Program-made: the position numbers and the translations under genes
Shown here: piece by piece, positions 14,290 through 62,729 of the stretch
How positions within the stretch are numbered: the stretch's first letter is position 1
How the letters are laid out: each line of letters opens with the position of its first letter
Assembly: GCA_014360645.1 (NCBI GenBank)
Contig: JACIXD010000018.1
Span: 8,638-72,637, forward strand
Length of the DNA: 64,000 bases
Source of the DNA: Actinomycetota bacterium
GTDB lineage: Bacteria; Actinomycetota; Geothermincolia; Geothermincolales; RBG-13-55-18
Reading direction: 5' to 3'
Notes under the pieces: generated by a model
Database searches by the model: none
Told to the model about the DNA's origin: nothing
What the model saw: only the letters and a program-made list of their open reading frames with translations

Positions 14290-16893
14290 CTAGGGCGCGA
14301 ACCCCGCCACCACGTGCCCTCCGCTCACCCCGCCGCCGCAGTCGAAGTATATGGGGCGCTCGGCGAGGATGGGCCGGTCGGACACCACGCGGGCCGAGAG
14401 CTGGTAGCCTTCCCCGGCGTGCTCGTTGACGAATAACGTCTGCCTGGTGCCCGCCGGAAGGCGCAGGGTCCTATCCTCCAGCGGACCCTCCTCTTCCGTG
14501 AAGTAACGGATGAGCACCAGGGCCTCATCCACGCCCGGATTATAGATGCACAGCCAGGTGTGGAACGACTCCCCGGTGTACCCTTCCGCGAAAAACCATT
14601 CTCTTCCAGCTGCGGTGGCGCCCATCACGCAATCGCCGCCGTCCCAGTCGGCGCCGAAGCCGCGGTAGCGGAAGTACATGGGACGCTCGGCGAGGAAGAA
14701 GGAGGTGGAGACCAGTACCACGCTCACGTCCTTTTCCCGTCCCACCTCTCCCGGCACGAAAACGGTGAGGCGTTTGCCCGGCTGCACCACGTAGGATCTC
14801 TCTACGGGGTCGCCCTGGCCCTCCCCGAAGCGGAAGGACGCATATACGGTGATGATGCGGGGGTTGGGGTTCTGGAGGGTCAGCCATTCCTCGAAGCCCT
14901 CCCGCGTGGTGCCCTCGGCGAAATAATACAACTGCGCCAGCCGCGTGGCCCCCGGCACGCAGTGCCCGCCCTTCCACCCGTGGCCCGCGGTGCCGGCGTA
15001 ATCGAAATACACCGAGCGCTCCGCCACCACGGGGAGGTCCGAGGAGAGCTTCAGGGAGGCCTGGTAACCGCTTCCCAGGATGTCGTTGGCCTTGAAGCTG
15101 CGCCGCGAGCGAGGGGGCACGGAGAAGCCGTCCTTCACCACCTCGCCCTCCTCCTGGGTCTGGAAACGGAAGGTCAGGCCGGCCTCGCAGTCGCAGGGGT
15201 TGAGGACGCATATCCACTCCTCGAATCCGCTCCCCGTGTATCCCTCCGCGAAATACCACACCGTGGAGGGCGAGGGGACCCCCGCGGCGTCATGCCCCCC
15301 CGCGCGACCGCCCCCGTAACTGAAATACATGGGCCGTTCCCCCACCAGAAACCGGTCCGACTCGAGCACCGCGGAGACCTCGCGGTCCGTTCCCACATCG
15401 GCGTTGACGAAAAGGGTGACGCGGGACTCCGGCGGCACCGGCAGCAGCCTGGTGAGGCTGGAACCGTCGGGGAAGAGATAGGTGAGGGCGGCTCGCGCCG
15501 TCCGGGGGCCGGGGTTTCCCAGACAGAGGAACTCGCGGAAGCCCTCACCGGTATACCCCTCCGCGAAGTAAAGGACATGCGAGACACGCGCCCGCCACAC
15601 CTGGGCGCCCTGGAGATTGCTCGCCGCGGCCGTGAGCTCGCCCCCCTCTACCAGCAAAGCCTGCGCCGAGATGTTCCCTGCGTCCCCAAAGCCGCCGTCG
15701 CCCTCGAGATGCCAGGATGAGCCGTCGTAGCGCCACACCTCGCACCCCGACTCCTCGTTGTAGGTGCCAGCGAAGAGGTCCACGGCGCCGGCGGCCAGGG
15801 AGACGGCGGAGAGGTTCGCCCGGTCTCCGAATCCGTCCCCTCCCACCCTGGTCCAGTTGGCCCCGTCGAAGGACCACACCTGGCACCCGCTCCCCCCGGA
15901 GGAATCGTAGGTGCCCACGTACAGGCCCGCGTTGTAGACGGCCATGGAGGCCGCCCGGCGGTTATCCGGGTCCCCGAAGCCGGGCGCCGTGGGCGTGCCC
16001 GAGGGCCCGCCTCCCACCTCCTGGGTCCAGCGAGTCCCGTCGAAAGACCACACCTGACATCCCGAGGTGTAATCGTTGTTGTATGTCCCCGCGTAGAGGC
16101 TGCCGAAATAGACCGCCATGGCGGAGGCGCCCTGGTTGCCCGCATCACCGAACCCACCCTCCGCGACCCGCTTCCACTCCCTGCCGTCCCAGCTCCAGAC
16201 CTGGCAGCCCCCGGCGTTGAAGGTGCCGGCGTACAGCCGCCCCGAGAAGACGGCCAGGCTCGGCACGTCGGTGTTGCCGGGATCCCCGAAGCCGGGCGCG
16301 GTGGGCGTGCCCGGGGGCCCGCCTCCCACCTCCTGGGTCCAAGACCTTCCGTCCCAAGACCAGATGCGGCATCCGGTATCCGGGTTTCTCACTCCCAGGT
16401 AAAGACGCGAGGAGAAGACGGCCATGCTCGATACGTTGTTGTTCCGGGGGTCCCCGAAGCCGGGCGCGGTGGGCGTGCCCGATGACCCACCTCCCACCTC
16501 CTGAGTCCAGGAGAGGCCGTCCCATGACCATACCTGGCAGCCCGAAGGGTTATAGGTGCCGCCATAGAGGCGGCCTCGGAAGGATGCCAGGGCGTGGATC
16601 TCCGAGTTGCCCGGCACCCCGAAGCCGGAGGCAGCCTTGCGCTCCCAGGAAGAGGAACTCGCGGAGTGGGTCCCTCCCGCATACGCCCCGGGACCTGCAG
16701 GACCCGCCATGCGCTCCCGTGAACAAGGAGGGGCGGAGAGAGAGATGCCGGGCGAGGGCGGGCACCTGAAGGAGGCGAGAAGTAGCGCTCCCATGATTAC
16801 GATGGCCGCTCCGGACACACTTCCCCGGCGATACACGCCACCCCTCGGGCCTGCCTTTCCGGGATTCACCCCCCTAAGGGCACTCATGGCCAT
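14290..16893 (-). CDS. Large secreted/membrane-anchored repeat protein: about 7 Cys-containing propeller-like blades plus 4 C-terminal YFAEG(Y/T)TG..F.EW(L/I)..NP modules
   Basis: N-terminal TM/signal segment (AAIVIMGALLLASF). About 50-aa repeats GFGDxxN..SMAV(F/Y)..LY.GT.N..GCQVWS(W/F)DG..W. The four C-terminal modules resemble actinobacterial DUF5719-type repeats (from memory). GAAGGAG lies before the ATG at 16893. Confidence 0.8.
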   Translation of the reverse strand: MAMSALRGVNPGKAGPRGGVYRRGSVSGAAIVIMGALLLASFRCPPSPGISLSAPPCSRERMAGPAGPGAYAGGTHSASSSSWERKAASGFGVPGNSEIHALASFRGRLYGGTYNPSGCQVWSWDGLSWTQEVGGGSSGTPTAPGFGDPRNNNVSSMAVFSSRLYLGVRNPDTGCRIWSWDGRSWTQEVGGGPPGTPTAPGFGDPGNTDVPSLAVFSGRLYAGTFNAGGCQVWSWDGREWKRVAEGGFGDAGNQGASAMAVYFGSLYAGTYNNDYTSGCQVWSFDGTRWTQEVGGGPSGTPTAPGFGDPDNRRAASMAVYNAGLYVGTYDSSGGSGCQVWSFDGANWTRVGGDGFGDRANLSAVSLAAGAVDLFAGTYNEESGCEVWRYDGSSWHLEGDGGFGDAGNISAQALLVEGGELTAAASNLQGAQVWRARVSHVLYFAEGYTGEGFREFLCLGNPGPRTARAALTYLFPDGSSLTRLLPVPPESRVTLFVNADVGTDREVSAVLESDRFLVGERPMYFSYGGGRAGGHDAAGVPSPSTVWYFAEGYTGSGFEEWICVLNPCDCEAGLTFRFQTQEEGEVVKDGFSVPPRSRRSFKANDILGSGYQASLKLSSDLPVVAERSVYFDYAGTAGHGWKGGHCVPGATRLAQLYYFAEGTTREGFEEWLTLQNPNPRIITVYASFRFGEGQGDPVERSYVVQPGKRLTVFVPGEVGREKDVSVVLVSTSFFLAERPMYFRYRGFGADWDGGDCVMGATAAGREWFFAEGYTGESFHTWLCIYNPGVDEALVLIRYFTEEEGPLEDRTLRLPAGTRQTLFVNEHAGEGYQLSARVVSDRPILAERPIYFDCGGGVSGGHVVAGFAP

Positions 16894-17112
16894 TCCGCTC
16901 CTTCTCTCCCGGACGCGATCGCGGATATCCTCCCGCAGAGGAGCCCTTTTGCGGGTGCACCCCTCCGCGCGTGCCGTTTCGCCATCTTTACGACCATCTC
17001 CCTCCTCTTCCACCGGCGGCACTCGCTCCTGGTTTAAGTATTCCAGCCCCGCTTCCCCTGCACCTTCAGATACGGGCGCGTCTCCATGAGCCTCCGCCCA
17101 CGGTTTTTCCAT

Positions 17113-17160
17113 TAGCCTTTTATGAGCCTTCTGCGAGCCTTCCTTGAGCCTTCTGCGAGC
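17113..17160. repeat. Phased 11-nt repeat, about 4.5 copies of (G/T)AGCCTT + 4 nt
   Basis: TAGCCTTttatGAGCCTTctgcGAGCCTTccttGAGCCTTctgcGAGC, located 220-270 nt upstream of the large repeat-protein gene start. Confidence 0.85.
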
Positions 17161-17546
17161 ACCCGGCCTCCCCGGCGTCGAGACCGGAGAGGGAAATCCC
17201 CTGCCGCCCCCCGTGAAAGATCGGAACCGGCACGGGATACGGGCCGACAGGCGGATGGCGGGCACCCAGGGACGCAGGCAGGAACCTCAACGCGGCGGCG
17301 CGGGCGGGCAACGGGTACGTGGGGGGCGCATACGGGTTTGGGGGGATTGAAACCGAGCCGGGGCGGCGTAGCGGGTGGACAGGGAAATGGTCTCCGGTCT
17401 CCGGCAAACCGCGCCATGACCGCTTATCGGGCCGCGGAAGTTGCCCGCAAACCCCTCCCGGGGGTTACCATATAGAGCATGAGGCCGGTCCGTACCAAGC
17501 GCATCGGCCGAGGCGGCGCAGGATCTTCGTCGTGGGGGATGATGAA

Positions 17547-21236: not shown

Positions 21237-21755
21237 ATGGATCTCGAGGGAAAGCGGGTCGCGGTGATCATCGGCAGGGGCTTCCAGGACCAGGAAGCCA
21301 CGGTCCCCATCGCCTTCCTACGGGATGAGGGCGCCGAGGTGACAACGGTTGGGCCGGAGACCGGGGAGGTCAAGGGCATCCACGGCACGGTCATCGAGGT
21401 GGTAAAAACCTTCCGCGAACTGGACCCTGCCGCTTTCGACGCCATGGTGGTGCCCGGGGGGAGGGCTCCCGCCTACCTGCGAAAATTCGAGGAGGCGCGG
21501 GAGTTCGTGGCCGCCTTCGCGGCCACCGGGAAACCCCTGGCAGCCATCTGCCACGGAGGGCAGCTCCTTGCCTCAGCCGGGTTGGTGAAAGGCCTTACCA
21601 TGACCGGGTACCCCAAGATCAAGGAGGAGATGGAGGAGGCCGGAGCCGTCTTCGTGGACCGCGAGGTGGTCATCGACCACAACATCATAACCTCCCGGGT
21701 GCCGGACGACCTGCCAGCCTTCAACGCCGCCTTGAAAGAGGCGCTGCTGAGATAG
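21237..21755 (+). CDS. DJ-1/PfpI family intracellular protease/deglycase
   Basis: Nucleophile elbow AICHGG and PfpI-like length and layout. Confidence 0.9.
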   Translation: MDLEGKRVAVIIGRGFQDQEATVPIAFLRDEGAEVTTVGPETGEVKGIHGTVIEVVKTFRELDPAAFDAMVVPGGRAPAYLRKFEEAREFVAAFAATGKPLAAICHGGQLLASAGLVKGLTMTGYPKIKEEMEEAGAVFVDREVVIDHNIITSRVPDDLPAFNAALKEALLR

Positions 21756-21804: not shown

Positions 21805-22473
21805 TCAGACCAGGCCGGAAAGGACCTCACGCGCCCGCGACAGCGCGTCCTCCTCCCAAGTTTCCAGCGTCCTTCCCTCCATGACCGCGATGAAAGCCCG
21901 CAGCTCCTCCCGGATCCCTCGCTCTCTCTCCGCGCGTATGGCATCGTCCAGGGGGCGCGTGGCCTGGAGCTTCATGTTGCCCTCCAGCCACCCCTCGGGG
22001 AAGTACCAGTCCTTGAACCAGCGCAGCCCGGCATTCCATAGATAACGCCCCAGGGGTGTGGCCGGGGGAGGAAATCCCCGCTTGAGGCCCCTCTCCGTCT
22101 CCCGGAAAAGGGGGTGCTCCTCGGCTCCGTAGATGGCCATCATGGACCCTCCGGGCGGGATCAGCTCTCCCAGGACGGAGAAGAGCGCGGCGGTCAGGCC
22201 CTCCCCCTCCAAGTCGGCGTGCGCGCCCCCCGAAAAAGCCACATCCGGCCGGTATCGGAATTCCAGCCAGGGCCTTATATAATCGCCCCTGCCGGCGAAA
22301 AAGAGCCCCTCCACCACGGGATTTGACGAAATCCCGCCGTCCCTCAACAGGAAGAGGTGGAAATAGGTCTCCCTGCCCGTCCTCCCGGGCTTGAGGTCTC
22401 GGGGCAACAGCGAGTACCCGCCGAGGCGCCTCCCCTCCAGGGCTCGCATCAGGACCTCCGCGGGGCTTTCCAT
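21805..22473 (-). CDS. Hypothetical protein (no confidently recognised family)
   Basis: Coherent high-GC3 ORF. The ATG at 22473 follows AGGAGGT. The track ORF is longer (to 22548). Confidence 0.6.
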   Translation of the reverse strand: MESPAEVLMRALEGRRLGGYSLLPRDLKPGRTGRETYFHLFLLRDGGISSNPVVEGLFFAGRGDYIRPWLEFRYRPDVAFSGGAHADLEGEGLTAALFSVLGELIPPGGSMMAIYGAEEHPLFRETERGLKRGFPPPATPLGRYLWNAGLRWFKDWYFPEGWLEGNMKLQATRPLDDAIRAERERGIREELRAFIAVMEGRTLETWEEDALSRAREVLSGLV

Positions 22474-22675
22474 CACCTTTACATACCTCCTGCCAAAACA
22501 CGCAAACGTCTCCGGTCCATATTGTTCCCCGCAAGGCCGTGCTGTCACCTCCCCTTACCCGCAACCCGGAACGGGTGAGTGCGGGGCGCAGGGAAAAGGG
22601 GTTATTCGCCCGGCACGGAGGGGAAAGATAACAGCGCAAGAGCAAGAGAAGGTAAGGGAAAGGAGGTTCGGAAAG

Positions 22676-23179
22676 ATGCGTGAGATGACGGAGAAGTTCC
22701 TAAACGAAGCCTTCGCCGGGGAGAGCATGGCGCACATGAAGTACCAGCACTTCGCGGACAAGGCGGAGGCGGAGGGGCTCACGGAGATGGCCAGGATGTT
22801 CCGCGCCATCGCCTACGCCGAGCGCGTGCACGCCGGCAACCACCTGGAGGTGCTGGGAGGCCTGAAGTCCACCTCAGACAACATACAAGCATGCATCAAC
22901 GGCGAGACCTTCGAGATCAACGAGATGTACCCCGCCTATAACGCCGTGGCCAAGTTGCAGGACGAGGACGGCGCAGTGCGCAGCACCTACTATGCCCTGG
23001 AGGCGGAGAAGATCCACGCCGACTGGTACAAAGCGGCCAAGGAGGCGGTGGACAAAGGCGAGGACGTGAAGGTGGGGACCATCCAGATCTGCAGCGTGTG
23101 CGGGCACACCCGCGAGGGAAACGCCCCGGACAAGTGCCCCATATGCGGGGCCTCGAAGGACAAGTTCGTGCAGTTCTGA
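22676..23179 (+). CDS. rbr: Rubrerythrin
   Basis: Diiron ExxH motifs (AYAERVH, EAEKIH) plus a C-terminal rubredoxin-like CSVCG..CPICG. Confidence 0.9.
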   Translation: MREMTEKFLNEAFAGESMAHMKYQHFADKAEAEGLTEMARMFRAIAYAERVHAGNHLEVLGGLKSTSDNIQACINGETFEINEMYPAYNAVAKLQDEDGAVRSTYYALEAEKIHADWYKAAKEAVDKGEDVKVGTIQICSVCGHTREGNAPDKCPICGASKDKFVQF

Positions 23180-23237
23180 TCGGCTGAACGAAGACGGCGG
23201 GCGTCCGCCGCGAAGGAACGATAAAGGAGGTATGGAC

Positions 23238-23615
23238 ATGGCGGAGAGGATGGAGATCTACAAGTGCGAGATATGCGGCAACATCGTGGAGGTCCTCCAC
23301 GGAGGCAAGGGCACCCTGGTCTGCTGCGGCGAGGAGATGGTGCTGCAGGTGGAAAACACCGTTGACGCCGCGGTGGAAAAGCACGTCCCGGTGGTCGAGG
23401 TGCTAGAGGACGGGGTGCTGGTGAAGGTGGGCGAGGTCGCCCATCCCATGCAGGACGACCACTACATCGAATGGGTGCAGATAATCGTGGGGGACAGGTG
23501 CTCTCGCATCTTCCTGAAGCCGGGAATGGCGCCGGAGGGGAAATTCACGCCTCCCAAGGAGGGGATCACCGCCCGCGAGTACTGCAACCTCCACGGGCTG
23601 TGGAAGTCGAGCTAG
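23238..23615 (+). CDS. dfx: Desulfoferrodoxin (2Fe superoxide reductase)
   Basis: N-terminal desulforedoxin CxxC..CC (YKCEICGN..LVCCG) and the SOR centre II region (KHVP, H..H, C..H). Confidence 0.9.
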   Translation: MAERMEIYKCEICGNIVEVLHGGKGTLVCCGEEMVLQVENTVDAAVEKHVPVVEVLEDGVLVKVGEVAHPMQDDHYIEWVQIIVGDRCSRIFLKPGMAPEGKFTPPKEGITAREYCNLHGLWKSS

Positions 23616-23672
23616 GGGCCGAGATCGCCCTGCCCGGGAAGTGGCGGACATGCGGGCGAGGAGGATAGGCAG

Positions 23673-23699
23673 AAAAGGGCGCCCGCGCGGGCGCCCTTT
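23673..23699. terminator. Bidirectional intrinsic terminator between dfx and the peroxiredoxin gene
   Basis: AAAA-GGGCGCCC-gcgc-GGGCGCCC-TTT: a perfect 8-bp GC stem flanked by an A-run and a T-run, between convergent genes. Confidence 0.8.
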
Positions 23700-23714: not shown

Positions 23715-24440
23715 TCAGAACGCGTTCTCCGGTTTCCATACCTTCCAAACCTTGCCGGCCAGATCCGGCCCGGGCTTGAGGGTGGGCTTGCCGGGCTGCC
23801 AGCCCGAGGGCATGACCTCGCCGGTCTTCGCGGTGTGCTGGTAGGCCTTGACCTGCCTGATCAGCTCGCTCACGTTGCGCCCCACCGGAGGGGTCATCAC
23901 CTCCATGGCCTGGATTATCCCGTCCGGGTCGATGAGGAAGCGGCCCCGGATGTTCACGCCCGCGTCCTCGTCATACACGCCGTAGGCCCGCCCGATGCGC
24001 CCGCCGGCGTCGCTGAGCATGGGGAAGGGCACGCCTCCTTTCACCATCTTGGAGAGTTCCTCCTCCTGCCATATCTTGTGGGTGAACCTGCTGTCCACGC
24101 TCATGGAGAGGACCTCCACGCCCAGCTTCTTCAGCTCGTTGTACTTGACGGCGACCGCCGACAGCTCGGTCGGTCATACGAAGGTGAAGTCTCCGGGGTA
24201 GAAACAGAGCAACACCCACTTGCCCTTGTAATCCGACAGCTTCACGTTCCTGAAGCCGCCCTTAACGAATGCGCTGGCCTCGAAATCGGGCGCGGGCTTT
24301 CCGACTTGAGCGATCACATCTCCACCTCCCTGTGGCACCGCCGATCCGCTCTCCTTTGCCGCGGCAGCCCCAGGCTGTGAGATTATGCCCTTGGCCGGTT
24401 CCACGCATCTGTCTTTCGGTTCCGCCTTCGCCGCTGCCAT
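23715..24440 (-). CDS. Peroxiredoxin (AhpC/Prx1 type) with in-frame TGA (24174-24176) at the peroxidatic Cys position; candidate selenoprotein (PrxU-like), otherwise a pseudogene
   Basis: Track ORFs 24174..24440 and 23715..24119 are in the same frame. Read-through gives [45 protein letters not shown]. Strong SD GAGGAGGTGA precedes the ATG at 24440. An alternative internal GTG start exists at 24317. Confidence 0.7.
24153..24175 (-). other. Hairpin overlapping/following the UGA (candidate bacterial SECIS-like element)
   Basis: The mRNA GACCG-A-CCGA-GCUG-UCGG-CGGUC forms a 9-bp stem with one bulged A and a 4-nt loop, starting at the GA of UGA. Not validated against SECIS models. Confidence 0.35.
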
Positions 24441-24541
24441 AACATCACCTCCTCGCCGCTCGCGGGGGTCACGCCCTCCCGTCTTGCGTGTTCACGCCAT
24501 GTAGCGCCCTTGGCGGAGAAGACACCGGAAGAGCCGCTGCC

Positions 24542-26673: not shown

Positions 26674-28527
26674 ATGGATGAAGGAAAGAAAAAGAAGTTC
26701 TGGCTGTACGCGGTCTACGGGGCCATCGCGCTGGCCATCATCCTCAGCATACAGTACGCCAATCCCTTCCATCCCCGGGAGATCGACTACAGCGAGTTCC
26801 TCTCCCGCCTCAATGCGGGAGAGGTGACCAGGGTGGTGATCACCGACACCCGCATCGAGGGCAAGTACCGCACCGAGGAGGGCGAGCGTGATTTCACCGC
26901 GGGGCGCATACCCGACGCCGACATCCAGGACCTCATAAAGACCATGGAGGACAAGGGGGTCTCCTTTTCCGGCAGGATCGAGAACACCTTCTGGCGCGAC
27001 TTCCTCTTCACCTGGATCCTTCCCATAGGCCTCATCGCCTTCATCTGGTTCTTCGTCTTCCGCCGCCTCTCGCGGCGCATCGGGGGCGCCAGCCCCATAT
27101 CCTTCGGGCAGTCCAAGGTTAAGCTCTACGACAGCAGTGTGGACCGGGTCACCTTCGACGACGTGGCGGGCCTGGACGAGGCCAAACAGGAGCTGCGCGA
27201 GATCATCGATTTCCTGCGCAACCCCCAGAAATACCGCAGAATCGGGGCGAGGATCCCCAAGGGCGTGCTCCTGGTGGGACCTCCGGGCACCGGCAAGACC
27301 CTCATGGCGCGCGCCGTGGCGGGAGAGGCCGGCGTGCCCTTCTTCTCCATCAGCGGCTCGCAGTTCATGGAGATGTTCGTGGGGGTGGGGGCGGCGCGGG
27401 TGCGCGACCTCTTCGAGCAGGCCAAGGCCAAGGCGCCCTGTATCGTGTTCATCGACGAGATCGAGACCATCGGCAAGGTGCGCGGCGGCATCATCGCCAG
27501 CGGAGGCACCGAGGAGCGGGAGCAGACCCTGAACCAGCTCCTCTCGGAGATGGACGGCTTCGACCCCCAGACGGGAGTGATCATCCTCGCCGCCACCAAC
27601 CGCCCCGAGGTGCTGGACAGCGCCATCCTAAGGCCGGGGCGTTTCGACCGCCAAATAATGATCGACCGCCCGGATATCAGGGGGCGGGAGGAGATCCTCA
27701 AGGTACACGTGCGCAAGGTGAAGCTCGCCGACGACGTGGACCTGCACAGGATCGCGGCCCGCACCCCCGGCTTCGCGGGCGCGGAGCTGGCCAACGTGGT
27801 CAACGAGGCCGCCCTGCTGGCGGCGCGCAAGAACAAGGAACAGGTGGAGGAGGAGGATTTTGAGCAGGCCATCGACCGCGTGGTGGGGGGCCTGGAGCTC
27901 AAGAGCAGGGTGATGAGCGAGAGGGAGAGGAGGGTGGTGGCCTTCCACGAGGTGGGCCATGCGCTGGCGGCCTCTCTACTGGAGCACGCCGATCCCGTGC
28001 ACCGCATCACCGTCATCCCCCGCGGTATCGGCGCCCTGGGGATGACCATGCAGCTCCCCGAGGAGGACCGCTACATCATGACCAAGCCCGAGCTCGAGGA
28101 CCGCCTCGCGGTGCTCCTGGGGGGCAGGATCGCCGAGGAGATCATCTTCGGCGAGATCTCCACCGGGGCCCAGAACGACCTGGAAAAAGCCACCATCCTG
28201 GCCCGCAAGATGGTGGAGGACTACGGCATGAGCGAGAGGATAGGTCCGGTGACCCTGGGGCTGGAGCGGGGCGCCCGTCTGCTCATGGGGGAGTTCTCCT
28301 ACGGCAAGGAGGCCAATTACAGCGAGGCCACCGCCGAGCTCATCGACCAGGAGGTCAAGGGGATTATCATGCGCAACTACGGGCGCGTGAAGGCCCTTCT
28401 GGAGGAAAGACGGGCGCTGCTGGAGGAGATCGCGGAGGTGCTCCTGGACAAGGAGACCCTGGAGGGGGACGAGTTCCGCGCCCTCCTCGAGGGAAGCGAA
28501 GAGGAGCGCAGAGCGGCCATCACCTGA
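26674..28527 (+). CDS. ftsH: ATP-dependent zinc metalloprotease FtsH
   Basis: Two N-terminal TM segments, Walker A GPPGTGKT, an SRH region and the HEVGHAL zinc motif. Confidence 0.95.
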
Positions 28528-28586
28528 CCGCGCCGGTATGAGACAGAGGCCGCGCCGGCCGGGTGCCGACCGCAGGGAGGCGCGAG

Positions 28587-29525
28587 ATGGAGCGCGTGAG
28601 GGATGTGATCATCATCGGGGCGGGTCCGGCGGGACTCTCGGCCGGGGTGTACTGCGCCCGCAAGATGCTGGACACCCTGGTGGTATCGCAGAACGTGGGA
28701 GGCCAGGCCACCTGGTCCTGGGAGGTCGAGAACTACCTCGGTTACCAGCTCATCAGCGGAGTGGAGCTCGCGGAGCGTTTCCGCGAGCACCTGGAGAACT
28801 TCCCCGTGGAGCTGCGCGAGGGGCGCACGGTCACCTCCCTCGCGGTCGCGCCTCCAGGCGAGGGGTTCGCGGTGACCACGGACCGGGACGGCGAGGCCAA
28901 GGGGCGGGCGGTGATCGTGGCCTCGGGCAAGGTGCCGCGCATGCTGGGGGTGCCGGGAGAAAAGGAATACCGCGGACGCGGCGTCGCCTACTGTTCCACC
29001 TGCGACGCGCCCCTGTTCCGGAACCGCAGGGTGGCGGTGGTGGGGGGCGGGAACTCCGCCCTCGATGCCGCACTGCAGCTGTCCGGCATCGCCGAGCGCG
29101 TCTTCGTAATCACCAACGAGCCCGCCCTGGGCGGTGACGAGATCCGGCGCCGTCAGGTGCTCGCCTCTCCCGTGGTGGAGGTCCTATATTCCACGCAGGT
29201 CAGCTCGATCACCGGCGAGAGGTTCGTGAAAGGCCTGACCTATCGCGGGGAGGGGGAAGAGGGGACCCTGGAGGTAGAAGGGGTTTTCATTGAGATCGGG
29301 AGCGTGCCCAGCACCTCCTTCCTGCCCCCGGAGGTCGCCCTCAACGAGCTGGACGAGGTGGTGGTGGACTCCAACAACCGCACCAGCGTCCCCGGCCTCT
29401 TCGCCGCCGGGGACGTCACCGACGTCATCGAGAAGCAGATCATCATCGCTGCCGGGGAAGGGGCCAAGGCGGCGCTGTCCGCCTACGCCTGGCTGGTGGA
29501 AAGTGGCCTCGTCAGGGACCGGTGA
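28587..29525 (+). CDS. Thioredoxin-reductase-like FAD-dependent pyridine nucleotide-disulfide oxidoreductase
   Basis: GAGPAG FAD motif, redox CSTC, GGGNSA NAD(P) motif and a GD motif. ATG follows GGGAGG. Confidence 0.85.
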   Translation: MERVRDVIIIGAGPAGLSAGVYCARKMLDTLVVSQNVGGQATWSWEVENYLGYQLISGVELAERFREHLENFPVELREGRTVTSLAVAPPGEGFAVTTDRDGEAKGRAVIVASGKVPRMLGVPGEKEYRGRGVAYCSTCDAPLFRNRRVAVVGGGNSALDAALQLSGIAERVFVITNEPALGGDEIRRRQVLASPVVEVLYSTQVSSITGERFVKGLTYRGEGEEGTLEVEGVFIEIGSVPSTSFLPPEVALNELDEVVVDSNNRTSVPGLFAAGDVTDVIEKQIIIAAGEGAKAALSAYAWLVESGLVRDR

Positions 29526-42268: not shown

Positions 42269-44341
42269 TCAATCGCCCTCGGTCACCACCTGGGAGAAGT
42301 CGGCGAACTCCAGGAAGAGGGAGGCCACCCCGTTAAGCAGGGCCAGGCGGTTCTCGCGCAGAGCCTCGTCCTCGCCCATGACGAAGATGTCCTCGAAGAA
42401 GCGGTCCACCGCCGGCGCCAGCTCCAGCAGCACCCCCAGCGCCTCGCCGTGCTCTCCCGCGTCAAGGTGTGACCGCAGCGGTTCCTGGGCCCACACCAGC
42501 CGGGAGTAGAGCTCCTTTTCCGCCTCCTCGCTCAACAGGGACTCCTCCAGCGCCGTTCCGCTCCACTTGCGCGAGAGGTTGTAGCAACGCTCGAACCCGG
42601 TGTAGGCACGCTGCAACGAGCCGCGCTCCCGCGCCGCCTGCAGGGTCTCCAAGCGCCGCCTGGCCTCCCAGGGGTCGTGGGGTGCCGTGGGCATCACCGC
42701 CGCCACCAGGTCGTAATGGAAGCCCTCGTTGACGAGCATCTGCCTCCAGCGCTGGCGGCAGAACTCGGCCACCTCCCCGGCCACGCCCCCGGGATCCGAG
42801 AGGCCCAGGCCCTCCGCCGCGCGCCGCACCACCGCGGCGAAGTCCAGGTGCAGGGAGGCGGAGGTGAGGATGTTCATCACCGCCTGGGCCTGGCGCCGCA
42901 GCGCGTAGGGGTCCTCGGAGCCGGTTGGGGCGAGCCCGCTCCCGAAGCAGGCCGCCAGGTTGTCCGCCTTGTCCGCCAGGGAGAGCACCGTGCCCGCGGG
43001 CGTGCGCGGCAGCAGGTCGCCCGCGAAACGCGGCCGGTAGTGCTCCTCGATGGCCCAGGCCACCTCCTCCTCCTCGCCCGTGCGCAACGCATATATCCTG
43101 CCCATGATCCCCTGCAGGGAGGTGAACTCGATGACCATGGAGGTCACCAGGTCCGCCTTGCACAGCACGGCGGCCCTCTTCGCCCTCTCCTCCACCTCCG
43201 CTCCCAGGTGCGCCCGCTCGCAGATATCCGAGCTGAGGGCGGCCAGGCGCATGCTCTTCTCGTAGAGGCTTCCCAGGCGGGCCTGCCACACCACCGCTTT
43301 GAGGTCTTCCAGGCGCTCCTCCAAGCCGCGCCGCAGGTCCTCCTGGAAGAAAAAGGCAGCATCCTCAAGGCGCGCCCTGAGCACCCTCTCGTTGCCGCGC
43401 CTGATCACCTCCTCCCTGGCGGGGTCGCCGTTGTGCACCACCAGGAAGGCGGCAGCGATGCTCCCCCTCCCGTCCTCCACCGGGAAATAACGCTGGTGCT
43501 CCTGCATGGCCGTCTCCAGCACCTCCCGGGGCAGGCCGAGGAAGCGCTCCTCGAAACGCCCCAGGATCACATGCGGGTACTCCACCAGGTCGACCACCTC
43601 GTCGAGGGTGTCCTGGGAAGGGACGGCCCGCATGCCCGTGCCCGCGAGGGCCATCTCGATCCCCTTCATCACCGCCGCCCTGCGTTCCGCCTCGTCCGCC
43701 AGTACGCACGCCCCGCGCAGTGCCTCCCGGTAGCCAGCGGCATCCCCTACCTCCACCCCACCGGGGGACAGAAAGCGGTGGCCCCTGGTGACGCGGCCCG
43801 CGCGCATGCCCTCGAAGGACAGGGGGACCACCTCGGTGCCGTAGAGGGCGAGGAGCCAGCGCACCGGGCGGGCGAACCGGAACTCCCCGTCCCCCCAGCG
43901 CATGGACTTGCGGAAAGCGAGGGACCTTATCAGGCCGTCGAGGATCCCGGGCAGCACCTCCAGGGCGGGCTTCCCCTCCTCCTTAACGATGGCGAAGACG
44001 AACTCTCCCTTCTCCGTGGGGCGTATCTCCAGGTCCTCCACCCGCAGGCCCCGCGAACGCGCGAAGCCCTCCGCGGCCTTCGTGGGCCTCCCGTCCGGGT
44101 CGAAGGCCGCCTCCCGCGACGGGCCCCGGACCTCGGCAACCGCGTCCTCCTGCCTTTCCTCGAGGCCCCTCACCAGCAGGGCCAGCCTCCTCGGGGTGGA
44201 GTAGACCACCAGCTCCTCGTAGGCCAGGCGCTCGCGTTCCAGGGCCGCGGCGGCGTTGGCCTCCAGCTGCCTCCTCCCGTCCTGCACCGCTCCCCAGGGA
44301 AGTTCCTCGGTCCCGATCTCCAGCAGCAGGTCCCCGGCCAT
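42269..44341 (-). CDS. glyS: Glycine--tRNA ligase beta subunit
   Basis: Full-length GlyS pattern (LLLEIGTEELP start). Immediately follows glyQ. Confidence 0.95.
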   Translation of the reverse strand: MAGDLLLEIGTEELPWGAVQDGRRQLEANAAAALERERLAYEELVVYSTPRRLALLVRGLEERQEDAVAEVRGPSREAAFDPDGRPTKAAEGFARSRGLRVEDLEIRPTEKGEFVFAIVKEEGKPALEVLPGILDGLIRSLAFRKSMRWGDGEFRFARPVRWLLALYGTEVVPLSFEGMRAGRVTRGHRFLSPGGVEVGDAAGYREALRGACVLADEAERRAAVMKGIEMALAGTGMRAVPSQDTLDEVVDLVEYPHVILGRFEERFLGLPREVLETAMQEHQRYFPVEDGRGSIAAAFLVVHNGDPAREEVIRRGNERVLRARLEDAAFFFQEDLRRGLEERLEDLKAVVWQARLGSLYEKSMRLAALSSDICERAHLGAEVEERAKRAAVLCKADLVTSMVIEFTSLQGIMGRIYALRTGEEEEVAWAIEEHYRPRFAGDLLPRTPAGTVLSLADKADNLAACFGSGLAPTGSEDPYALRRQAQAVMNILTSASLHLDFAAVVRRAAEGLGLSDPGGVAGEVAEFCRQRWRQMLVNEGFHYDLVAAVMPTAPHDPWEARRRLETLQAARERGSLQRAYTGFERCYNLSRKWSGTALEESLLSEEAEKELYSRLVWAQEPLRSHLDAGEHGEALGVLLELAPAVDRFFEDIFVMGEDEALRENRLALLNGVASLFLEFADFSQVVTEGD

Positions 44342-45217
44342 TCAGGAACCCCCCTCCAGCAGCGGAAAACCCAGCTCCTCCCTCTGCGCCAGGTAGGCTG
44401 ACGCCGCGCCCCGGGCGAGGTCCCGCACCCTGGCGATGTAGGAGGTGCGCTCGGTGACGCTGATCACCCCGCGGGCGTCGAGGATGTTGAAGAGGTGCGA
44501 ACACTTGAGCACGCAGTCATAGGCGGGGAGGACCAGCCCTTTCGCCATCAGCCTCTTGGCCTCCGCCTCGTAGCGGTCGAAGAGCTCGAAGGTCAGCCCG
44601 GTGTCCGCCTCCTCGAAGCAGTATGTGCTCCATTCCACCTCCGCGGTACGCTGCAGGTCTCCGTAGGTGATCTTCTCGTTCCAGCGCAGGTCGAAGACGT
44701 TGTCCACCTCCTGCACGTACATGGCCAGACGCTCCATGCCGTAGGTCAGCTCCACCGAAACGGGACGGCAGTCCAGGGAGCCCACCTGCTGGAAATAGGT
44801 GAACTGGGTGATCTCCATGCCGTCCAGCCAGACCTCCCATCCCAGCCCCCATGCCCCCAGGGTGGGGGATTCCCAATCGTCCTCGACGAAGCGCACGTCG
44901 TGCAGGGAGGGGTCTATCCCCAGGGCACGCAGGGAGTCCAGGTACACGTCCTGCACGTCATCGGGAGACGGCTTGAGGATGACCTGGAACTGGGTGTGCT
45001 GGTGCAGGCGGTTGGGGTTCTCCGCGTAGCGGCCGTCCGTGGGGCGGCGCGAGGGCTCAACGTACGCCACCCGCCAAGGCTCCGGCCCCAGGGCGCGCAG
45101 GAAGGTGGCGGGGTTGAAGGTGCCCGCCCCCACCTCCACGTCGTAGGGCTGGACCAAGACGCAGCCGCGCCGCGTCCAGTAGGCCTGCAGGGCCATGATC
45201 ATGTCCTGAAAATACAT
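44342..45217 (-). CDS. glyQ: Glycine--tRNA ligase alpha subunit
   Basis: [14 protein letters not shown].. highly conserved GlyQ sequence. ATG follows GGGAGGT. Confidence 0.95.
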
Positions 45218-62046: not shown

Positions 62047-62307
62047 CTACTTCTTCGCCGGCTTCTTGGCGGCCGTCTTCTTGGCGGGCTTCTTGGCCGC
62101 TGCCTTCTTCGCCGGCTTCTTGGCGGCCGTCTTCTTGGCGGGCTTCTTGGCCGCTGCCTTCTTCGCCGGCTTCTTGGCGGCCGGCTTCTTGGCCGCCGGC
62201 TTCTTGGCGGCCGTCTTCTTGGCGGGCTTCTTGGCCGCTGCCTTCTTCGCCGGCTTCTTGGCGGCCGGCTTCTTGGCCGCCGGCTTCTTGGCGGGTTTCG
62301 TAGCCAT
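62047..62307 (-). CDS. Histone H1-like Lys/Ala/Pro repeat protein (86 aa)
   Basis: [36 protein letters not shown].. throughout. Strong SD AAAGGAGTGA before the ATG. The DNA is itself tandemly repetitive. Confidence 0.75.
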
Positions 62308-62729
62308 CTTTTCACTCCTTTCCTAGGATTTCTCTAATAGACTTCGCCCTTATCTCTTTTTTTCCTTCCGGGTAATCGTCACCGATAGAACAGTCGTCTC
62401 CACATGGTGATGGATGACGGAGGTGCTGCAGGAGTCCGTTATATCGTCAATATGGCAATATATGGCAGTATATCACTTCCATGTCCATGGGCGGATAGTG
62501 AGAGTATGGAACACAAGATCGACGACCGCTATGCGATATTCGCTCCAGAAATAGGAAGCATACTTCCGGGCAAGTCCACGCGGGCGATCGATGAGCCGGA
62601 CATCCGCCCTTATGAAATGGCCTGTCCTCTGGCGGCATCGATACCGGTCATCCGCACAAGGCGGGAAAGAGTCCGGGTTAGTGCGGAGAAATATCAGGAT
62701 GGCCGGCAAACGTCATCGCAGGCAGCCCT

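Follow-up and report, generated by a model that had tools for sequence, protein, structure and literature searches.

We identified an in-frame TGA in a peroxiredoxin gene on the minus strand of the 64-kb stretch of DNA analyzed here (the window), and this TGA is almost certainly a genuine selenocysteine (Sec) codon in a PrxU-family peroxiredoxin. In the reading that we favor, with a probability of roughly 0.88, the gene is an intact prxU in which Sec would be inserted by means of SelB and a hairpin, another conserved cysteine would act as the resolving residue, and a thioredoxin-type reductant would serve the enzyme. Within the PrxU family the gene is unexceptional; the family and its recoding were both known before, and a near-identical allele has already been annotated. 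The gene and its flanking signals comprise the following elements:

24448..24453, minus strand: Shine-Dalgarno (SD) sequence AGGAGG, 7 nt upstream of the ATG at 24440-24438
23715..24440, minus strand: prxU long form, 241 codons including Sec89, with a terminal TGA at 23717-23715
24174..24176, minus strand: Sec89 codon UGA at the peroxidatic position, conserved as TGA in 79 of 80 relatives and shared by four independent assemblies of this species
23671..23696, minus strand: terminator-like hairpin GGGCGCCC-GCGC-GGGCGCCC followed by TTTTCT, 19 nt past the prxU stop, read directly

A preliminary description of this DNA had placed the open reading frames (ORFs) 24174..24440 and 23715..24119 in one frame with a TGA between them. 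The ORF list confirmed this arrangement, and the TGA at 24176-24174 is the single internal stop in 24440..23715 on the minus strand when the gene is read as 241 codons. The strong SD sequence claimed for the gene is the AGGAGG with its 7-nt spacing to the ATG, and an SD-like motif precedes the equivalent upstream start in 72 of 74 relatives. The GC-rich terminator-like hairpin was absent from the output of the consensus scan, though it is readable in the sequence.

We substituted Cys for Sec89 in the domain, structure-alignment and profile searches. The protein matched the Pfam domains AhpC-TSA (1.3e-39), Redoxin and 1-cysPrx_C, and it aligned with human Prx2 (5ijt/1qmv; E = 2.7e-56) with approximately 50% identity over the peroxiredoxin (Prx) domain. 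The proposal that the TGA occupies the position of the peroxidatic Cys was upheld by this alignment, in which it lies opposite Cys51 of the Prx2 motif FTFVCPTE; the PxxxTxxU motif of the family is present as P82-G-D-F-T86-F-V-U89. The loss of the usual resolving-Cys motif was also borne out, since GEVMPSGW is aligned opposite GEVCPAGW of Prx2, with a methionine at the canonical resolving position:

23811..23813, minus strand: Met210 codon, at the canonical resolving Cys position (GEVCP changed to GEVMP)

Among relatives with a recognizable GEV-x-P motif, the x residue is usually T or M and occasionally A or L; a single locus (L017) retains Cys. The overall fold is of the Prx1 type, that of a thioredoxin-fold peroxiredoxin.

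The NCBIfam equivalog NF040737 (peroxi_PrxU, thioredoxin-dependent peroxiredoxin) matched with 393.8 bits (cutoff 270), and the match extends from residue 10 to residue 238 (profile positions 2-232 of 233), with the N-terminal arm of the protein included. We considered two other identities and rejected both. A typical 2-Cys enzyme of the Prx1/AhpC type does not fit, given that Met210 replaces the resolving Cys of GEVCP and that the AhpC equivalog TIGR03137 scored 198.7 bits, below its cutoff of 272. A 1-Cys enzyme of the Prx6 type does not fit either, as the equivalogs NF009668, NF009669 and NF009670 scored 123-145 bits against cutoffs of 211-374, and the 1-cysPrx_C domain is also common to Prx1-type enzymes. 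Sec-peroxiredoxin is a listed selenoprotein family with the motif TxxU, founded on PrxU of Eubacterium acidaminophilum (PMC13188914), and that protein, from what is now Peptoclostridium, is credited to Sohling et al. 2001 where it is cited (PMC13188914, PMC8533274). The family numbered 12 genes in a count from 2006 (PMC1794560), and one from 2016 listed 91 in 78 organisms (PMC5029168). Sec-peroxiredoxins have thus been known since 2001, and a curated NCBI model exists for them.

We compared the gene with its 80 nearest relatives (68-87% identity), taking one genome per species (GTDB representatives). The relatives span Actinomycetota, Chloroflexota, Desulfobacterota, Zixiibacteriota, Ignavibacteria, Acidobacteriota, Planctomycetota and others, and the four closest are labelled Actinomycetota. 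The exact Sec89 codon is TGA in all of them except one Acidobacteriota locus (L033), which has TGC, and the frame is open to its normal end in all 80. The earlier argument that a random nonsense mutation was unlikely to hit this one codon is strengthened accordingly, the same TGA in so many relatives putting the placement of the stop far beyond chance. Over the 114 codons that follow the TGA, we obtained dN/dS values of 0.08-0.15 against the nearest relatives, with synonymous divergence ranging from 0.3 to above 1, indicating that the post-TGA segment is translated and under selection.

These results bear on the possibility that the gene is a pseudogene, an ordinary peroxiredoxin inactivated by a TGC or TGT to TGA nonsense mutation. 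One base change is enough to turn TGC into TGA, TGC is what L033 carries at this codon, and a related locus without prxU (L084, described below) indicates that the gene is dispensable in some lineages. Decay would nevertheless have to be reconciled with the same TGA in 79 species-level relatives, with the low post-TGA dN/dS and with an RNA hairpin just downstream of the TGA that covaries. The preliminary description had pointed to relatives carrying the TGA together with further disabling mutations as the mark of a pseudogene, and we found no further lesions. We consider inactivation highly improbable, and retain the reading of an intact prxU.

The same TGA is present in the window and in three other assemblies of the same species, NCBI GCA_030018255.1, JGI 3300002733 and Logan SRR28285702, which share 98.6-99.9% DNA identity with the window; the prxU alleles of this species differ from that of the window by only one to three synonymous changes and one L77V. 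The recurrence of the TGA in these assemblies rules out an assembly error. The only support for a sequencing or assembly error is that the TGA differs by a single base from a Cys codon; the four independent assemblies come from different samples, agree at 98.6-100% DNA identity, and are joined by 79 other species with the same codon, so that the chance of such an error is negligible.

A bacterial SECIS-like hairpin is located immediately downstream of the UGA, as is characteristic of PrxU genes:

24146..24163, minus strand: SECIS-like hairpin UGUCGGC-[GGUC]-GCCGUCA, starting 10 nt after the UGA, recognized by covariation

The apical loop of this hairpin (24163-24146) is at 24156-24153 (GGUC in the window, R-G-U-Y in the family), and the stem contains a U.U mismatch at 24161/24148. 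RNAalifold returned no consensus structure for the 80 sequences, which led us to count pairs in specified candidate structures instead. With the alignment columns numbered from the U of UGA, the hairpin occupies columns 14-31, and the addition of the flanking pair 13:32 gave nine pairs, six of which show compensatory changes among the 80 sequences. Within columns 13-32, 60 cells were changed on both sides compared to 15.8 expected, and none of 500 shuffles was as high. On four of five measures no shuffle out of 500 reached the observed value, while five did so for the number of pairs in which both sides had changed.

The conservation is sharpest around the loop, where G22 and U23 are invariant. 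The loop-closing pair 21:24 is AU in 56 sequences, GC in 23 and GU in one, and never a mismatch among the 80 (AU 56, GC 24 and GU 1 when the Cys form L033 is included). Both of its positions are synonymous third positions, in Ala GCR and Val GUY codons, and the pair has switched jointly between AU and GC approximately 16 independent times on a neighbor-joining tree of the rest of the protein. At pair 16:29, the residues Thr-Val are accompanied by A-U, Ala-Ala by G-C, and Ser-Val, the combination in the window, by U.U; this pair shows that the RNA constrains even the protein sequence. The covariation makes a strong case for a putative SECIS at this location. The hairpin taken alone is no more stable than shuffled sequence (z = -1.18), and Rfam yielded no match over the whole window at gathering thresholds, nor on 24080-24200 at E values up to 10.

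The preliminary description had proposed a different hairpin, at 24175-24153. This structure is indeed the minimum-free-energy fold of the window sequence (-21.4 kcal/mol), but it is not the conserved element. Its stability is unexceptional (z = -1.4; 20 of 200 shuffles folded as well), and in the 80 sequences it showed no changes on both sides and paired no better than shuffled columns. We therefore rejected it as the SECIS.

The prxU gene itself points to a host with the Sec-decoding trait, and marks that host as a probable selenocysteine user. The tRNA search (ARAGORN) found no tRNA, and hence no tRNA-Sec, in the 64-kb window, and SelA, SelB and SelD were absent among the approximately 40 window ORFs annotated with Pfam. 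A six-frame scan for other TGA-interrupted coding regions revealed no second selenoprotein gene in the window; the candidates were limited to a glyQ-TGA-ATG-glyS junction and to antisense or spurious frames. At the junction, the glyQ stop TGA (44342-44344, minus strand) is followed by the in-frame ATG of glyS (42269-44341), and the apparent TGA-interrupted ORF of 1035 codons was rejected as a selenoprotein, consisting of two adjacent genes for the glycyl-tRNA synthetase subunits.

We evaluated the possibility that the TGA is read through without Sec, either because the genetic code assigns an amino acid to TGA (table 4 or 25) or because a near-cognate tRNA inserts Trp or Cys. The lack of Sec machinery within the window would be in keeping with this, as would the tryptophan at the Sec position in many metagenome gene calls of relatives. 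A reassigned code is excluded by the use of TGA in the window, where it is the commonest ordinary stop, terminating 30 of 46 genes, among them glyQ and prxU itself; this usage argues for a genome code without TGA as a sense codon. The tryptophan calls are probably best explained by the use of table 4 by gene callers on short contigs of about 1 kb, and both the conserved G-U of the apical loop and the distance between hairpin and UGA agree with a SelB-dependent element. Readthrough of this kind is accordingly unlikely, and insertion of Sec remains the preferred reading. Among metagenome PrxU homologues, many have Trp at this position in the motif FTFVWPTE (P0001, P0005, P0007, P0009 and P0064); these entries look like mistranslated selenoproteins, produced by a TGA = Trp table on short contigs.

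Gene callers differ in how they treat the locus. The gene call of the NCBI sister metagenome-assembled genome (MAG) runs across the TGA and gives 241 residues, whereas the JGI and Logan calls split the gene into 88 and 129 residues. An exact look-up of the 241-residue sequence, with X or C at the Sec position, found no entry in the protein collection searched. The split calls might be taken to describe a real split enzyme, made of an 88-residue N-terminal piece and a separately started C-terminal piece (from GTG 24119 or ATG 24107). No SD-like motif precedes these downstream start candidates, the catalytic residue would be lost from such an enzyme, and the conserved hairpin and UGA would be purposeless; we give this arrangement very little credence. 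For annotation, the locus illustrates that a true selenoprotein gene is split by ordinary callers (88/129) or mistranslated with Trp.

Two other ORFs of the window came to our attention. The first, at 14290-17265 on the minus strand, has 991 residues and no Pfam match; the sister contig shows internal repeats of approximately 120 bp with 84-88% identity at 16221-16545, and its counterpart of the ORF has only faint matches to ASRT and DUF5719. This ORF is a large repetitive protein. The second, at 62066-62326 on the plus strand, is composed of tandem hydrophobic repeats, and represents either low-complexity repeat sequence or a spurious gene.

With the canonical resolving Cys gone, the preliminary description had concluded that the chemistry would rest on the single residue at the TGA. 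This need not be so, as two other cysteines are kept, one near-invariant (Cys12) and one invariant (Cys79):

24381..24422, minus strand: N-terminal arm motif, residues 7-20, found in 77 of 81 sequences, with the Cys12 codon TGC at 24407-24405
24204..24206, minus strand: Cys79 codon TGT, ten residues N-terminal to Sec, invariant (81 of 81 sequences)

The arm motif reads E-x-K-D-x-C-V-x-P-A-K-G-P-I and usually begins seven codons after the start. In a broader alignment of 59 sequences, which includes a second subclade, conservation of Cys12 is 90% or higher. The identity of the motif is 0.655, 0.765 and 0.349 at the first, second and third codon positions, respectively, and its Cys codon is TGT in 39 sequences and TGC in 38, a pattern that shows conservation at the protein level. 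A hypervariable linker of roughly 20 residues joins the arm to the Prx domain. The AlphaFold2 model of a Cys-form homologue (P0026) fits a tethered arm, with pLDDT values above 90 for the domain, below 50 for the linker and approximately 64 for the arm motif. Two loci (L056 and L059) have no arm and retain the TGA. At the position of Cys79, Prx2 has Phe; a further homologue (P0029) has neither Cys12 nor Cys79, and carries Cys in place of Sec.

In the mechanism that we infer for this organism, the hairpin that starts 10 nt past the UGA would be the binding site for SelB carrying Sec-tRNA(Sec). With the invariant G and U of the R-G-U-Y loop displayed to SelB, the UGA at 24176-24174 would be decoded as Sec89 instead of terminating translation. 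The Sec89 selenolate would then reduce H2O2 or an organic hydroperoxide and become a selenenic acid. Another conserved Cys would resolve the oxidized Sec to a selenenylsulfide, and this would in turn be reduced by a thioredoxin-type reductant. We propose another Cys for this step because Met occupies the canonical C-terminal resolving position. Cys12, on the flexible N-terminal arm, is the most likely candidate; Cys79, or Cys79 together with Cys12, is the alternative. Cys12 may be viewed as a candidate relocated resolving Cys by analogy with MsrB1, in which reduction by thioredoxin requires the N-terminal Cys4, the residue that resolves Sec95 (PMC1278935).

The gene also contains a second potential start within its reading frame:

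24315..24330, minus strand: internal initiation site, GGGAGG at 24330-24325, a 7-nt spacer and GTG (Val42) at 24317-24315

The internal start lies in frame, 47 codons before Sec. Across the 80 loci, the corresponding codon is ATG in 56, GTG in 12 and TTG in two, and an SD-like motif is located upstream of it in 77 of the 80, compared to 15% at other codons of the same genes. Judged by these motifs, the two nested, SD-preceded starts suggest that one gene might produce a long isoform with the Cys arm and a short, arm-less isoform of about 200 residues.

It is conceivable, although we hold this only tentatively and with less than even confidence, that in PrxU the Cys of the arm replaces the lost resolving Cys by forming an Se-S bond with Sec, possibly via Cys79, that the nested starts provide arm-bearing and arm-less subunits, and that such an arrangement is undescribed for peroxiredoxins. 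We found no description of an N-terminal resolving Cys or of nested starts for PrxU in the full-text literature searched. Of the leads from this locus, only the arm with its Cys and the pair of nested starts may be undescribed. Together with the covarying in-frame SECIS, the relocated Cys and the nested starts could offer modest leads on why the resolving residues of Sec enzymes have to be tailored.

The preliminary description had assigned the gene to a cluster for defense against reactive oxygen in an anaerobe, and prxU does lie among oxidative-stress genes:

21237-21755: DJ-1/PfpI
21805-22548: DUF1122
about 22670-23179: rubrerythrin
23232-23615: desulfoferrodoxin
24823-24542, minus strand: EncFtn-like mini-rubrerythrin (half-rubrerythrin) of 93 residues, directly upstream of prxU with a gap of approximately 100 nt
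26674-28527: FtsH, with Pfam domains taken from the gene call of the sister MAG
28563-29525: thioredoxin-reductase-like flavoprotein

Further neighbors are an Rrf2 regulator and a 4Fe-4S protein. The EncFtn-like gene may be co-transcribed with prxU, and nine contigs from different samples encode an identical product for it. Among the 80 relatives, the 3-kb flanks revealed no universal neighbor and no dedicated reductase partner; desulfoferrodoxin occurs in 12 of these loci and rubrerythrin in 10, and the closest relative (L001) has the same downstream desulfoferrodoxin and rubrerythrin. In one related locus (L084; GCA_015711825.1, JACVJD010000081.1, 9700-9790), prxU is missing between the EncFtn-like gene and desulfoferrodoxin. 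The flanks of this locus share 80-91% DNA identity with the window, and the terminator hairpin of prxU, GGGCGCCCGCGCGGGCGCCC, is kept there after the upstream gene. The retention of both flanks and hairpin in the absence of prxU indicates a clean presence/absence difference between related lineages.

Several known systems can be set beside the window gene. The SECIS of E. coli fdhF has a GGUC apical loop in which G23 and U24 contact SelB, a bulged U, and a minimal hairpin approximately 11 nt after the UGA. Both that element and the one in the window are short hairpins within the coding sequence just after the UGA. In the window element, the loop is GGUC (R-G-U-Y in the family, where G22 and U23 never vary), the stem includes a U.U mismatch and the spacing is 10 nt; this stem differs in sequence and is shorter, and binding of the element by SelB is predicted. 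Typical 2-Cys peroxiredoxins, such as human Prx2 and bacterial AhpC, share with the window protein the FTFV-x-PTE site, the conserved Arg and the C-terminal subdomain. The window protein differs from them in having Sec for the peroxidatic Cys, Met for the resolving Cys of GEVCP, Cys rather than Phe ten residues before the peroxidatic position, and an additional N-terminal arm of approximately 40 residues with a conserved Cys.

The likeness to mammalian MsrB1, whose Sec and flexible N-terminal Cys4 form a selenenylsulfide, is a functional analogy only (PMC1278935). The fold and the reaction are unrelated, MsrB1 acting in methionine sulfoxide reduction, and for Cys12 of PrxU such a role is one that we infer. 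The closest counterpart is PrxU of E. acidaminophilum, which shares the fold, likewise carries a UGA in the peroxidatic place of PxxxTxxU, and also lacks the canonical resolving Cys of the C-terminal region. The 2001 paper on that enzyme reportedly described a protein of 203 residues with Sec47, which we take to be the short form made from the internal Met; the internal start of the window gene is GTG instead of ATG. In nothing essential does the window gene differ from this PrxU, and its host is probably a member of an uncultured Actinomycetota lineage rather than a relative of Clostridium.
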